Shown here: in pieces, positions 21,907-62,430 of the stretch
Position numbering within the stretch: the first letter of the stretch is position 1
Layout of the letters: every line of letters starts with the position of its first letter
DNA from: Eledone cirrhosa
Taxonomy: Eukaryota
Reading direction: 5' to 3'
Assembly: GCA_964016885.1 (NCBI GenBank)
Contig: OZ024741.1
Location: 371,566,001-371,630,000 of the forward strand
Length of the DNA stretch: 64,000 nucleotides
Made by a program: the position numbers and the translations under genes
Notes under the pieces: generated by a model
The model's input: the letters and a program-made list of their open reading frames with translations, nothing else
Told to the model about the DNA's origin: nothing
The model's database searches: none

Positions 21907-22090
21907 GCGAATGAAAAGTGGTAAGGAACCAGGTGGACCATAACGCACCAAAGTACTCAATACTTAGGGTAGTAGAGTGGGTAATAGGAGTAAGTAAGAC
22001 CCCGACGGCTGAGCTCAAGCCGTTTCGACGGTACAGAATTAGCCGTCGAAACGGCTTGAGCTCAGCCGTCGGGGTCTTACTTACTCCTAT
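21907..22090 (-). mobile_element. ~200-bp hairpin element (hammerhead 3'-half family), copy 1
   Basis: Perfect 48-bp arms 21984-22031 and 22043-22090, unique body, (TA)n flanks. Confidence 0.85.
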
Positions 22091-24297
22091 ATATATATAT
22101 ATATGTGTGTGTGTGTGTGTGTGTGTGTGTGTGTGTGTGTGTGTGTGTGTGTGTGTGTGTGTGTGTGTGTGTGTGTGATAAACTACTGAATTATGCAGTC
22201 ATACACAAACAAAGTTTATACTTGAACGATTACTGTGTATATACATATATATATATATATATATATATATACATATATATATATGTATATATATATCGGA
22301 TTATGCAGTAATACGCAAAGGAGTTTTATACTCGAATGATTACTGTATATGTATATGATGAACTTTACATTCTATATTTCATTTATTGATGTCAGCATAC
22401 CATAGAGAAGCATGCAATTGAAAGTACATACCACAGTCATAACAAACAAATAATAGATGGCACACCATTTTCGGGTAGAATATTCGTAACAAATCCCTTG
22501 TTTTAGTAATGAGCAAAAAAAAAAAAAAAGTAATAATAATAGCTAGAAGGGAATTTCCACCCATCCACCCACCCTTAAGGGATGAAATGAAAATTGTTAA
22601 CATTCATTGTTATATACACAATGTTCACAGCGGGATTTCATCCTTATCTTCAACACCGCCATAGGCAGATAAACCATTGTTGTAACATGAGACATTTGCC
22701 AGAAGCTTCATGCCAAACAAGACAAAGTTATTAGATGAAAGAATTATGGTATGATAATTATAAGTGTGTAAATGTATAAAGTGTGAGTCTATGTTGCGCG
22801 TGTGTGTGTGTGTGCGTATGTGCGCGTGTAAGTGCGTGCATGCGTGTAAGTAAGTATATGTTTGTGTGTATGTATATGTGTATATATATGTATACATGTA
22901 TATGTACATATATGTACGTATATATATATATATATATATATATATATATATATATATATATATATATATATATATATATATATATATATATTATATATAT
23001 ATATATATTGTATATATAGTAATAAACACAGTAAGTTGTGTGTTTAAAATTACGAGGGTTAAGATACCACGTTAGTTTGACAGATTTAACCTGAAGCAAA
23101 CGGAAAATAGAGGATAAAGAGTAAAATGTACAGACTGTTTCAATAACTATTTCATCTCCCGGACAGATTAGAGATTTTATCTGTTTTGCCCTGAGAATTC
23201 TGTTTGTAATAGATAATCCGTAGGCATCATCAACGAGAGATAAGATCAAATGTGACAAACACCTAAAACTAAAAGCTACACGAATGAATATTTCACCTCG
23301 TGCGCGAGAAGTCCAAAGTGGCGTGAGTGGATCGGCTAGAAACAATAGCCTAAATACACCCAACTTATTAGCTCACCAAGTTAGGGAACCGAAATTCAAG
23401 TAAGAGGCAGAGTTAATAACTCATATTAATACCCTGTAATTAACAAGCTCAAAGTATAAATACCGAGCATTAATCCCGCCGAGGTTGACTTTGCCTTTCA
23501 TCCTTACGGGGTCGATAAAATAAAGTACCAGTAATGCACTGGGTAATTGCTGGCCTTGTGCCTAAAGTAGAAACAATTATATAATAATATATATAGTAAT
23601 AATATAATATATATAGTAATATATATAGTAATAAACACAGTAAATTGTTGGGTTGGTTTTCCTGGCGGCGGGACCGGCCCCTGGCGCATAGGCCTACCTT
23701 GAGTGCTTGGAAAAATAAATTTCCCCTTCTTTCGGTAAATGAAACTACTCGGAGTGGCTTGATTCGCCCCAGGGGCCCGGCGCGCAGCCGGCTTTTTAAC
23801 CACCATATAGTACCTTTAAATTACAGATCAAATCAGAACTCTACTTAAGACCCCCCCCCCTCCTGGGTAAAGGAATAGTACAGGTTTTGTACAAGAATGG
23901 CCTAACGATGCGGGCTGACTTCCTTCTGACGCAACTGAAGCCTGTTATACATTCCTAGAGTGGTCGGAAAAATCGATTTCCATATCTTTCGCTAGGCGAT
24001 ATCACTCGGAGTGATGGGCTGCCCTAGCTTGTAGTCGCCGCGTGCTGTTTAACGGCTAAACAAAGACATAATCTTTACTCTATAATAAAATGTAAGTGTC
24101 TTCATAAAAGACTCTTTCTTTGCTTAAACCTCGCAACCTTAAAAATGTTAAACTGTTTAACTTTAAATTTTCTAATTTCTTTAATATTAAATATTAATTT
24201 TTTAACTTCATCCTATAAGTCTAAACAAAAATGTAACGTTCCAATCTTCTGCTCACACATTATAACACACTGAACACCACTATATTTACCTCTGCTA

Positions 24298-24640
24298 AGA
24301 TACGGGTCCCTGTGAAAGTTTTCTCGCGCCACTCCTGGCCTGACTGTAGTCTGACATTAATATCGACCTTTCTTCCTCTTTCTTTCTATCTTTCTTCTTG
24401 TAGCCATCAACCCTTACTCTTCTACTTCTTCCTTTTATTCTTTCTTTTCTCCCCTCTTTCTGTCTTCCTCCCGCTGACTTATCTTCCTTCCCCTTTTTGT
24501 TTGCCTATATTTGACCGGTAGTAGTTGTTTAGATACGGGTCCCTTAGAATAAAAAGATTTTTCGCGACAATCCTGGCCTGACTGTAATACCGACCTTCTT
24601 TCCTCTTTCTTTCTGTCTTTCTTCTTATAGCTGACATTAA
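24298..24640. repeat. Imperfect direct repeat, period ~233 bp
   Basis: AGATACGGGTCCCT..TCGCG..TCCTGGCCTGACTGTA..CGACCTT at ~24298 and ~24531. Confidence 0.65.
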
Positions 24641-24894
24641 CCCTGGATTCTCTTCTTCTTCCTTGCCCCTTCTTCTCTCTCCTTCCTTTCTTTCTTTCTT
24701 TCTTTCTTTTGTCTTGTAACTTATGTTCCCATCCCTTTCTGTTTTCCTTTATCTGACCGTAGTAGCACACTGTGAGCCTTAGCCACGTCACTCGAGGGCG
24801 ACCGGCTAAGGTAGAGGGTGCAAGATAGCGGTCGCCCTCGGGTCTTTGATTTTCAGCCCCATGGATTTTATCTATTACATTCACTCATTATATT

Positions 24895-25007
24895 TCGAAT
24901 ACCTGATATCACCGGATTCATACGGAACCCGGTCATTGAAATGATCATAATATAATAAACCTTTCAAGGATTTACACAAATCCAGCCTCCTGTCATTTCA
25001 TTATTAT
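24895..25007 (+). mobile_element. Degenerate copy of the 25245/54398 hammerhead family
   Basis: CTGATAT..ACCGG..CCGGTCATT-GAAA-TGATCA-TA..AATAAA..CCAGCCTCCTGTC, then (TA)n. Confidence 0.55.
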
Positions 25008-25050
25008 ATATATATATATATATATATATATATATATATATATATATATA

Positions 25051-25220
25051 AACGGAAAAAATGAAACGAAATTTCATTTCTCACTCTTAGTACAGCTGTT
25101 ACTTAAATATAAGTATGTATGCGTACATACATATATGTATACAGACGTACAGTAGTATGTATATATATATACATACATGCACACATATATATATGTACGT
25201 ATGGATTCACCGAACATTTA
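25051..25220. repeat. Unclassified (TA)n-flanked element, copy 2
   Basis: Matches 3917-4088. Confidence 0.7.
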
Positions 25221-60005: not shown

Positions 60006-60127
60006 GAATGAAATAGAATAATGTAGAATAAAGTGTCTTGTTCGAGGACACATCGCCGCATCCCACAGCCTGGGAATCGATCTCACAACCTTACGTTCAC
60101 TTTAGTCTTGTTTAATAATCATATGTG

Positions 60128-60250
60128 AAGGCGTGTGGCTGATTGGTTAGAGAACTGAATTTGCAATCGTGAGGTTGTCAGTTCGATTCCTGGACCAGGC
60201 GATGCGTTATGTCCTTGAGCAAGACATTTTATTTCACGTTGCTCCTTCTG
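60128..60250 (+). mobile_element. Second tRNA-headed SINE family
   Basis: GAAGGCGTGTGGCT..TGGTTAGAG..AGTTCGATTCCTGGACC..TCCTTGAGCAAGACA. Related pieces near 46497-46770, 48050-48125, 60525-60640 and 61005-61265. Confidence 0.7.
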
Positions 60251-62058
60251 CCTGGAGTTGCGGCCGATAGATAGTATTAGCAATTAGAAAGACCAACGGA
60301 AACATTGTTTCCTCGGTCCGATTTGACGAAAGTCGATCGACACATGTTTTAATATTTATAATGACCATGTGAGTACACAGAGGAAACTCTGGTGTAACAA
60401 GACTACATGTTGGCTTTAATAACAAAAATTGTTAATCTTTATTCTGGTAATAAGTACTCATTCTGTAATTCAAAGAGCCAATCTTGTCACACACTGTGTC
60501 ACACTGAATCTCCCTGAGAACTCCGTTAAGGGTAAGCGTGTCTGAGGAATACAATACTTAGCCACATCCGCGTTAATTTCACGAGCAATTTGTTCCATAA
60601 TTCAAATAACTGGACACTTTTCGTCTGAACGGACGGAAGTCCTTCACATATATAAACATTATGACAGAATTTTAACGACATAGTACTTTGTGGTTTGAAG
60701 CAACAGGCATCTGTTGATTTACAATGTTTTAAACAACTTCTCATTGTGTTCTCTTTCCGCTGCACTTAGTTGGAGGTTGTTGCCACAGTGGTATTTTTCA
60801 AATTTTAAACAGATAGGCGACACTAATAAACGAAAACGTATACTTCTATGTGTATCTTTACTCATGCTGTGTATCATTCCTTTGAGACTGACAAAGCCAG
60901 TTAACAGTGACAGATGGCTCGGTGAAAATATTTCCGACACTTCAGATACATTAAGAAGTACCATGGATTATTCTACATACAACAGCTCGTTGGATTTCCG
61001 ACAAGTGTTTCCAGTTGTTCAGACAACGGAACAACCTGCACGTGAAAGGAATGGGCATTTTACAGACATGCTTAGTATCCTTTATATAGTTCTTTGGGAT
61101 ATGTAGACTGACGTGGTATGTGACAATTTCAATTACAACTCATTTTTGCCAGCTGCATTGATTGGAGCAACGTGAAATAAAGCGTCTTGTTCAAGGATAC
61201 AAGGCGGCAACAGGAATCGAACTTCCAACATTACGATCGGGAACCAATCATCCTCTAAGCCACCAACCTATACACGCACTCAGATAGGCACACACATGCA
61301 CGCACAAACACACACGAGGAATCCCTCGTTAAAAACATACATAAACAAAGTAAAAATATATAACACGCGTGTTCGCGCACACATACACATATATATAATC
61401 AAGCACAATACACACACACACACATACACACACAAGAATACATACAGACACATACACATATATACAATCACGCACAATTACACACAACACACACACACAC
61501 ACACACACACACACACACACACACACACACACACACACACACACACACACACACACACACACACACACAAGAATACAAACAGACACATGCATATTACACG
61601 TTAGCAAAGTACATTTGTACACACATAATCACACAGTGATGTCTATCTCACCCAGAATGTTAACCCGGGTGGCTTTCAATGTGATGTGATAGCATAAGGG
61701 TCTCTTCTAACTTTGAACCAGAAATTTGAGATTTTACAAGAGAATAAATAAATAAATACAATATCATAACATATCCCACAGTGGAAGTCAACTTAATACT
61801 CAATCTCCCCTTCTTTTTCTTTTGCCTTTATTTCTTTTCTTATCTTCTGTTCTTCCTTTGAAATTCGTTTTTTTATTATTTTATTTCACACAGACACACA
61901 CACCCGTGTATGTATATATATATATACACACACACGTGTGTGTGTGTGTGTATATATATATATATATATATAGTGTTAATAATAAATTTGAAGACTAAAA
62001 TCCAAAGTGGGCTCGATAAGGATAAATATATATCAGATATATAAGAACCGTAGAGCAA

Positions 62059-62203
62059 ATATTTATTAAAATAACAGATTAAAGTTTAAGCAAAGAATCG
62101 CTGCTTTCACTCTTAACGGGATCTTCTGAAACTCAGAAGATCCCGTTAAGGGTGAAAGCACCGATTCTTTGCTTAAACTTTAATCTGTTATTTTAATAAA
62201 TAT
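62059..62203. repeat. ~70-bp-arm fold-back with a degenerate hammerhead-like core
   Basis: Arms 62059-62128 and 62134-62203; CAGAAGA-T-CCC(gttaa)GGG-T-GAAA; adjacent to (TA)n. Confidence 0.6.
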
Positions 62204-62217
62204 ATATATATATATAT

Positions 62218-62430
62218 AACGAAGGAGGTGTGATAAGGAACCAGATGGACCATAACGCACCAGAGTAGTCAATACTTAGGGTAGTAGAGTGGGTAATAGG
62301 AAAAAGTTTAACCCCGACGGCAGAGCTCAAGCCGTTTCGACGGCTATTTCTGGACTCGACGGCTATTTCTGTCCAGAAATACTCGTCAAAACGGCTTGAG
62401 CTCTGTCGTCGGGGTTAAACTTTTTCCTAT
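62218..62430 (-). mobile_element. ~200-bp hairpin element, copy 5
   Basis: Same body; arm variant AGGAAAAAGTTTAACCCC/GGGGTTAAACTTTTTCCT; small duplication in the centre. Confidence 0.85.

Follow-up and report, generated by a model that had tools for sequence, protein, structure and literature searches.

Back-to-back Penelope-like element stubs in (TA)n tracts of Eledone cirrhosa, with paired short and tail ends and a 5' wall inside a predicted hammerhead loop

Penelope-like elements (PLEs) have been published with a head-to-head-plus-tail layout and with (TA)n targeting (PMC8557442, PMC3846280). Partial tandems, an inverted 5'-truncated partner and a tail at one end are described for PLEs in general, and DKT and RWK motifs, a CxCX5C linker, CxxC and CxH motifs, no CCHH and insertion into (TA)n for the Hydra clade in particular (PMC8557442). 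Here, we investigated a short palindromic family of which five copies lie in a 64,000-nucleotide stretch of Eledone cirrhosa DNA (NCBI GenBank assembly GCA_964016885.1, contig OZ024741.1, positions 371,566,001 to 371,630,000 of the forward strand; hereafter the window), and searched for its relatives in the whole genome (3.0 Gb, 1796 contigs). We propose with moderate confidence that these stubs are back-to-back PLE debris from twin priming on a cut (TA)n tract, copied from an RNA that would start inside loop II of a hammerhead ribozyme. The identity of the parent element and the priming on both target strands, taken jointly, appear very likely.

Among the closest described systems is PAc (Poseidon of Anolis), a PLE protein that in vitro cuts and extends both strands of an AT-rich target and starts reverse transcription at two RNA sites bounding the tail, hammerhead cleavage not being needed (PMC11167929). 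The present family resembles it in its AT-rich target, in the two starts bounding a tail and, as proposed here, in the cutting and extension of both strands. The PAc starts lie 111-118 nucleotides (nt) into the open reading frame (ORF), do not differ between the strands and lack homology to the target (PMC11167929), whereas here both sites lie in the 5' untranslated region (5'UTR), are followed by TAT and, in 100 of 103 pairs, are each used on a different strand. The Penelope element of Adineta vaga likewise has head-to-head inverted pseudo-long terminal repeats (pLTRs), junction palindromes and an optional tail of one repeat; its pLTRs also occur solo and contain TATA- and Inr-like motifs, and its layout was attributed to self-priming on an antisense template (PMC3846280), whereas the arm statistics given below favour two independent cDNAs from a sense template. 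An internal promoter within the repeat is described for Drosophila Penelope (PMC2377424). Metazoan PLE hammerheads share with the present one a type I fold in the pLTR, a short stem I, a long stem II, a G10.1-C11.1 pair and a palindromic loop III (PMC4209133, PMC3088659), and differ from it in that here stem III is stable at 4-5 bp, an inner hairpin lies within the ~33 nt of loop II, and the 3' half is all that most genomic copies hold. Also close is Hydra-1_Obim of the Hydra clade, which resembles the parent in its single ORF with reverse transcriptase (RT) and GIY-YIG-type nuclease, the DKT and CxCx5C motifs, the lack of CCHH, (TA)n insertion and a hammerhead near the 3' end (PMC8557442). 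By eye it is similar and yet another family: its core is the canonical CTGAAGA as opposed to UUGANAA here, the tail of its clade has 30-40 nt as opposed to 80 nt, and the available passages of that paper mention no 138-nt stubs that stop at a fixed 5' wall and number in the tens of thousands, as they do here; four short probes of the present family are likewise absent from the text of its supplement.

The five units lie at about 21909-22090, 27786-28000, 55199-55397, 56729-56921 and 62219-62430 of the window, with (TA)n on both sides of each, and a palindrome scan of the window recovers all of them. They align over ~200 nt as a common 80-nt body plus a palindrome with arms of 50-60 bp, which confirms the outline given in an earlier note on this DNA; the body is the 3' tail of the element, and no separate 5' body exists. 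That note had also read each arm as the 3' half of a hammerhead that has lost its catalytic 5' half, and both parts of the claim are borne out, since GAAA, a 5-bp stem III, GUC and GGGG are present in the window units and the 5' half was found in none of the five. Comparison with Rfam at E<=1 gave no hammerhead among the best 150 of 160 matches, only sub-threshold microRNA-like matches. Contrary to the note, the symmetry axis does not always lie just 5' of GAAA: its position differs from copy to copy because each arm is truncated separately, and it can lie up to ~19 nt upstream, as in copy 3 (axis at 55337, GAAA at 55356). In the numbering used here the A of TTTAGTCC is +1, the short end is +58 and the tail end is +138; the arms and junctions in the window are as follows.

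21909..22031, minus strand: copy 1, tail-ended arm, unit positions ~+14 to +136.
22031..22090, plus strand: copy 1, short-ended arm, extending further 5' (~+2 to +5) than the tail arm.
27786..27847, minus strand: copy 2, short-ended arm, with a junction insertion beyond it.
27861..28000, plus strand: copy 2, tail-ended arm from +1, preceded by a non-parental G.
55199..55336, minus strand: copy 3, tail-ended arm, complete with its 138 nt (+1 to +138).
55337..55337, no strand: copy 3, single untemplated axis base, possibly the copy of a cap.
55338..55397, plus strand: copy 3, short-ended arm, +1 to +58 and then TAT, with GAAA at 55356 and the predicted cleavage triplet at 55376-55378.
56729..56858, minus strand: copy 4, tail-ended arm of the third (CTAG) subfamily.
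56875..56921, plus strand: copy 4, short-ended arm of the third subfamily.
62219..62356, minus strand: copy 5, complete tail-ended arm, +1 to +138.
62357..62370, no strand: copy 5, junction insertion of one C and a local 13-nt re-copy of the arm.
62371..62430, plus strand: copy 5, short-ended arm, +2 to +58 and then TAT.
61975..62203, no strand: for comparison, a unit of an unrelated second family that is built alike, with a tail arm, a short arm and a wall at TTAGT, adjoining copy 5.

The stub family has tens of thousands of copies in this genome. Exact patterns, the counts of which are lower bounds, match 13,928 head-to-head junctions and, where TATATA comes next, 33,333 tail ends and 23,377 short ends (TTCC-TAT), with no match to the reversed control in any of the three cases. 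The earlier idea of a TAT microhomology with (TA)n is supported, and it applies to both outer ends. The stub-to-parent ratio holds for the sample from one contig (C1) only. The sequences in which arms of different copies diverge had been thought particular to each copy; they turn out to be a segment of 11-13 nt that marks subfamilies (four variants make up 50 of 66 arms). The other part of that claim, likeness of the two arms within a copy, stands: the segment is identical within 50 of 66 pairs, compared with a mean of 10 and a maximum of 20 in 2000 shuffles, and arms diverge by 3.7% within copies and 10.6% between copies. Both arms of a pair therefore usually derive from one RNA or one subfamily, and a single clear pair among the 66 joins arms of two subfamilies. 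The earlier view that each insertion forms its palindrome anew is supported.

The evidence for priming on both target strands comes from 295 arms; they were parsed in the window, in 60 loci anchored on an end and in 60 ten-kb regions of contig C1. As many as 244 of these arms make 122 head-to-head pairs, 103 of which could be classed (19 have an unclassed end), and 100 of the 103 combine one short-ended with one tail-ended arm, the others being two tail+tail pairs and one short+short pair; the ten-kb regions alone give short+tail in 60 of 62 pairs. TA flanks both outer sides of 98 of the 103 classed pairs, a count that includes the end-anchored loci, for which one TA end served as the anchor. 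The longer arm may be of either type: among the 100 short+tail pairs, 43 have a short arm that extends further 5', 34 have a tail arm that does so and 23 have arms of equal reach, and 14 tail arms stop inside the tail and so have nothing in common with their partner. At four loci (L031, L047, L054, L033) arms are joined head-to-head to the ends of other families. This pairing of one short with one tail end, the freedom of either arm to be the longer and the joints between two families together fit independent priming on both target strands. Overlaps occur at 48 of the 122 junctions and insertions at 61, some of which are local re-copies of an arm, and 13 are blunt, a pattern that we take to be that of microhomology-type repair. 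Runs of 13-18 A or T stand at the junctions of three loci (L166, L257, L291) and suggest slippage of the RT or tailing of cDNA ends. Fusions, mostly head-to-head, to the ends or ORF pieces of other Penelope-like families were observed at L031, L047, L054, L033, L034 and L039, loci that come from a selected search and have no TA at the joint.

The inner ends of the arms are equally constrained. They lie between -10 and +10 in 177 of the 295 arms, clustering between -6 and ~+8, as compared with 96 that lie further 3', two between -59 and -11 and 20 past -60. In contigs of a public DNA run, one of two that were compared and possibly from the assembly's own sample, 58 loose ends fall exactly at +1, and the summed depth, which is not a copy number, is ~20-fold higher downstream. 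When the best 30 ORF-start copies were examined, 17 of the 20 that reach this zone pass the wall, compared with 22 of 199 ordinary arms (Fisher p 5e-12); there is therefore no general block to the RT, and the wall is probably an RNA start and not a structural block. The word TTAGT or TCAGT, which we take to be initiator-like, is kept in three subfamilies despite their different loops II, and a CC(A/T)6GG box, presumably CArG-like, stands at ~-65 to -56 in 86 of 99 parent copies. Predicted folds differ at the +1 base, one of them pairing it and another leaving it free. Among the first 50 of 4141 junctions in which both arms reach +1, six have a one-base centre, which is G or C in five. In the unrelated second family the arms likewise stop at TTAGT, where an untemplated G is frequent, and one arm has an ~80-nt tail; this family has 56 arm matches among the sampled loci, and no CUGANGA was found within the 105 nt upstream that were examined in its parent-type copies. 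On these grounds the wall is likely to be a transcription start.

Loci anchored on 3' ends only led to copies that share a long upstream extension, namely an ~750-nt 3'UTR and then ORF pieces with RT and GIY-YIG-type motifs. The parent reads in the order 3'UTR, hammerhead, short end (+58), 80-nt tail (+138), 5'UTR and ORF, the repeat recurring in tandem before the ORF start; past the tail, TATTTA precedes the 5'UTR, and the short and the tail end are both followed by TAT in the parent as well. A single ORF with an RT and, C-terminally, a nuclease of the GIY-YIG kind was recognized in broken pieces read by eye. In one long copy (L250) it has DKT and RWR motifs, the latter a variant of RWK, and a C-terminal frame with the CxCx5C linker, no CCHH, and CxxC and CxH beside conserved E and N. 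A database yielded 472 homologues of the ORF, many of the best 120 being ~700 aa long and one coming from Apostichopus japonicus, and the C-terminal part is 37% identical to one homologue (P0003). A partial tandem of the pLTR kind (repeat plus upstream 3'UTR) is present in 17 of the best 30 ORF-start copies, and an inverted truncated partner at L250 and L251; the Hydra-clade tail of 30-40 bp was not found, the one-arm tail here having 80 nt. A search of solved structures and a homologue search with the nuclease piece gave no match, and an Atlas search, useful as a lead only, returned unnamed or HTH_animal/RVT_1 clusters. From its motifs, homologues and layout we assign the parent to the Hydra clade of PLEs as a predicted member; a Neptune-like label was dropped because the motifs fit the Hydra clade. 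In another family (L069-L097) the hammerhead is canonical and there are two 3' ends, separated by ~95 nt and each leading into (TA)n; given this tail of ~95 nt, long tails may be general across the genome.

The earlier note had predicted parents with a CCCC-CTGANGA-GACGG half upstream. Parents with a 5' half do exist, and it is the predicted sequence that was not found, the actual core being UUGANAA. This core occurs in 88 of 99 parent copies, CUGAGAA, with a mismatch, in five and other forms in six, as counted with a pattern that presumed the shape and allowed <=2 mismatches. Stem I is CCCC/GGGG, the core lies at -45 to -39, stem II starts at -38, loop II has ~33 nt, GAAA stands at +19 and GUC ends at +41. 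Of the 378 cells of the type I three-stem fold in 18 clean copies, picked by hand from three subfamilies, 93% are paired, compared with 30-55% in slid controls; three stem II pairs have changes on both sides, all between subfamilies, and hence represent few events. Single-sequence folds of three parents gave stems I-III in one, stems I and II in the second and stem I only in the centroid of the third. The parent thus appears to carry a complete hammerhead fold with a U3-A8 core, a predicted ribozyme; U3-A8 is a known compensated core form, with covariation already reported in Schistosoma PLEs (PMC4209133, PMC3088659). A sub-lineage with a C3-A8 mismatch (L138, L207, L260, L261, L268) is predicted to be inactive and has spread nonetheless. 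Several upstream patterns were tried and rejected. In the search for the predicted parent, CTGANGA N5-30 CCGTCGAAACGGC gave none in 30 inspected of 38 matches and CTGANGA N0-4 GACGGCTAWTTC none in all eight of its matches, the hits being junction-made or unrelated; CCCTGANGAGTYCNGA (30 inspected of 34 matches) belongs to a different PLE family, and an ancestral GGAC-GAAAC stem II was represented in 30 of 30 inspected matches by products of junctions or deletions.

In the mechanism that we favour, twin priming on a cut (TA)n tract, the endonuclease of the element would cut both strands of the tract, each cut end would prime the RT at either of two sites within a single region of the RNA, both cDNAs would run off an RNA 5' end predicted to lie in hammerhead loop II, and their 3' ends would be joined by microhomology-type repair, with its short overlaps and local re-copies. 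If +1 is a polymerase II start, the 3' half would be all of the ribozyme that the RNA carries, and because the RNA would start inside loop II the CUGANGA-equivalent half was probably never in the template instead of having been removed by fold-back. Most stubs would then stem from short RNAs of many ORF-less terminal-repeat copies, mobilised in trans. In the twin priming of L1, two target strands prime on one RNA and copy non-overlapping segments of it, and retroviral strong-stop DNA is formed when cDNA synthesis runs out at the 5' end of the RNA, inside the terminal repeat. The stubs differ from the former in that both arms copy the same 58 nt and from the latter in having no tRNA primer, integrase or LTR.

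Several points weigh against this account. The 17 of 20 ORF-bearing copies that extend beyond +1 need an extra step, such as a template jump or a circular or read-through RNA, and the copying of the same 58 nt into both arms needs either strand displacement on one RNA or two RNAs, a choice on which the 50 of 66 identical variants and the one two-subfamily pair leave the data undecided. The TATA-like word at -30 of two subfamilies is absent from the third. The signature of a cap is weak: in a hand count of the same 50 junctions the base outward of +1 is templated in 59 of 94 arms and of cap type in 13, so that the wall is a zone of ~-6 to +2 and not a single base. The start site at +1 and expression of the element are predictions from DNA, the ORF pieces and six homologues gave no named domain in Pfam, the arms form a non-random sample, drawn from ten-kb regions picked around pattern matches, from the end-anchored loci and from the window, and the arm ends were taken from BLAST and are uncertain by a few bases. 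Unequal arms could also have arisen through later deletions in the palindrome.

With the same twin priming, the wall might instead mark a place in loop II of long RNAs where structure makes the RT stall or where a nuclease cuts. It would suit such a cause that in two subfamilies an inner hairpin of 7 bp is predicted whose 3' strand includes +1, that many arms overrun +1 by 1-6 bases toward the hairpin loop and that the cap-type base is in the minority. We nevertheless consider it unlikely: the stronger 9-bp strand of stem II is crossed by arms without a stop, ORF-bearing cDNAs cross the very place in 17 of 20 cases, the conserved element is the initiator-like word, and +1 of the third subfamily is predicted to be unpaired, yet four short arms start exactly there. 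A different origin would be self-priming, which is the proposal of the earlier note without its stem II detail and comes close to that of PMC3846280: a cDNA primed at the tail would snap back close to its 3' end, serve as its own template and be attached to the target through TAT microhomology, any imbalance of the arms being due to later deletions. Matching arms within a copy, the short end on TAT, and the overlaps at 48 of 122 junctions together with some short arm re-copies are as a fold-back would give. Folding on stem II, as the note has it, would however leave the natural ~33-nt loop II at the centres and keep the short arm always within the tail arm, and no snap-back can yield a second strand that exceeds the first in length or differs from it. 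What was found are centres of unselected junctions without the natural 5' strand of stem II and without its loop, arms that are reverse complements ending near one point of loop II, the short one further 5' in 43 of 100 pairs and by >=15 nt in 14 of 60 pairs of the ten-kb regions, and 14 of 100 tail arms that never reach the part held by the short arm. A 3.0-kb short-ended arm stands beside a 1.1-kb tail arm at L250 (L251 is alike), with ORF sequence missing from the tail arm; 19 of 30 long copies terminate at the short end, and some joints unite two families. For a sizeable fraction of the units folding back is thus largely refuted, and as a general origin it seems very improbable.

Copying of the palindrome as a whole, as a non-autonomous element of the kind of short interspersed elements (SINEs) or miniature inverted-repeat transposable elements (MITEs) multiplied from master hairpins, would account for the 40 best genome matches of copy 3, which are 95-96% identical over both arms and often have the same centre. 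These matches had been chosen by likeness, junctions taken without such a choice vary greatly and have the centre in both orientations, and kilobase inserts with ORF sequence obey the same pairing of ends, so that this origin looks remote. The hairpin is not explained by termini of MITEs or Helitrons, neither set of which was found. MITEs have terminal inverted repeats at both ends and a DNA-transposon parent; here the inverted repeat is internal, an 80-nt unique tail stands at one end, the centres vary and the parent encodes an RT. Helitrons and Helentrons have fixed ends (5' TC, 3' CTRR) and a subterminal hairpin; the ends here are TTCC-TAT and CGT-TAT or TGT-TAT, and both run on into the PLE parent. 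A non-LTR retrozyme, which would consist of tandem units joined head-to-tail and each with a full hammerhead, was also rejected, no head-to-tail array of the 138-nt unit being present among the 295 parsed arms.

Other families of similar build occur in the window. Long head-to-head palindromes of another family lie at 25245-25504 and 54398-54682, with arms of 125 and 139 bp; each arm of the former contains a CTGATGA core, a GAAA half and a 4-bp stem I, with a poorly paired stem II, and its axis lies ~25-30 nt 5' of the CTGATGA core. Further head-to-head palindromes by microsatellites, probably stubs of other families, are found at 18973-19166, 48919-49001 and 62483-62571. CTGANGA followed by a hairpin and GAAA occurs at 4781 (plus), 6646 (plus), 28076 (minus), 38780 (plus) and 55105 (minus) as candidate minimal hammerheads of other families, the first of them within an inverted pair at 4456-4608 and 4791-4943. 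RT frames of the long interspersed element (LINE) type form an inverted pair, 96-97% identical and 42 kb apart, at 7467-9239 (minus) and 51566-53630 (plus); further frames of this type are an open one of 705 aa at 9172-11289 (plus) and a broken two-ORF element at 33160-38480 (plus). Positions 1-3049 form a 3-kb tandem array rich in CAA/CAC with long open frames.

In kind the feature is ordinary: it is PLE insertion debris, very abundant, in which the ends pair by a clean rule and the 5' wall is sharp and lies within a variant hammerhead. In the titles and abstracts of the open-access literature, with subscription journals outside the scope, we found no pairing rule or twin priming for PLEs and no start inside a PLE hammerhead, and the term "twin priming" is absent from the open-access PLE papers surveyed; repeat libraries in published supplements (e.g., PMC13282606) may already hold the stub family. 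The origin of the tandem and inverted structures of PLEs and the role of their hammerhead are stated open questions (PMC8557442, PMC3846280, PMC11167929). Tens of thousands of minimal insertions hold both priming sites, the run-off points and the junction within 200 bp, and competing models of PLE insertion can therefore be counted; the rule of one short and one tail end and the independent lengths of the arms favour two-strand priming over the published self-priming. A further-reaching scheme, which we put forward as a possibility and consider rather doubtful, is that transcripts begin with a half ribozyme and end with a whole one, and that one RNA is primed twice, at the two TAT-marked sites and once per target strand, its run-off cDNAs either fusing into stubs, a strong-stop by-product that is now among the commonest repeats, or jumping to the 3' repeat and so rebuilding promoter and ribozyme. 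If true, such an LTR-like strand transfer would explain the partial tandems, inverted partners and one-sided tails of PLEs in one model. Stubs of this kind are likely annotated as MITEs, SINEs or microRNA-like hairpins, and a start inside loop II, if true, would recast many of the "half hammerheads" of animals as the 5' ends of transcripts.

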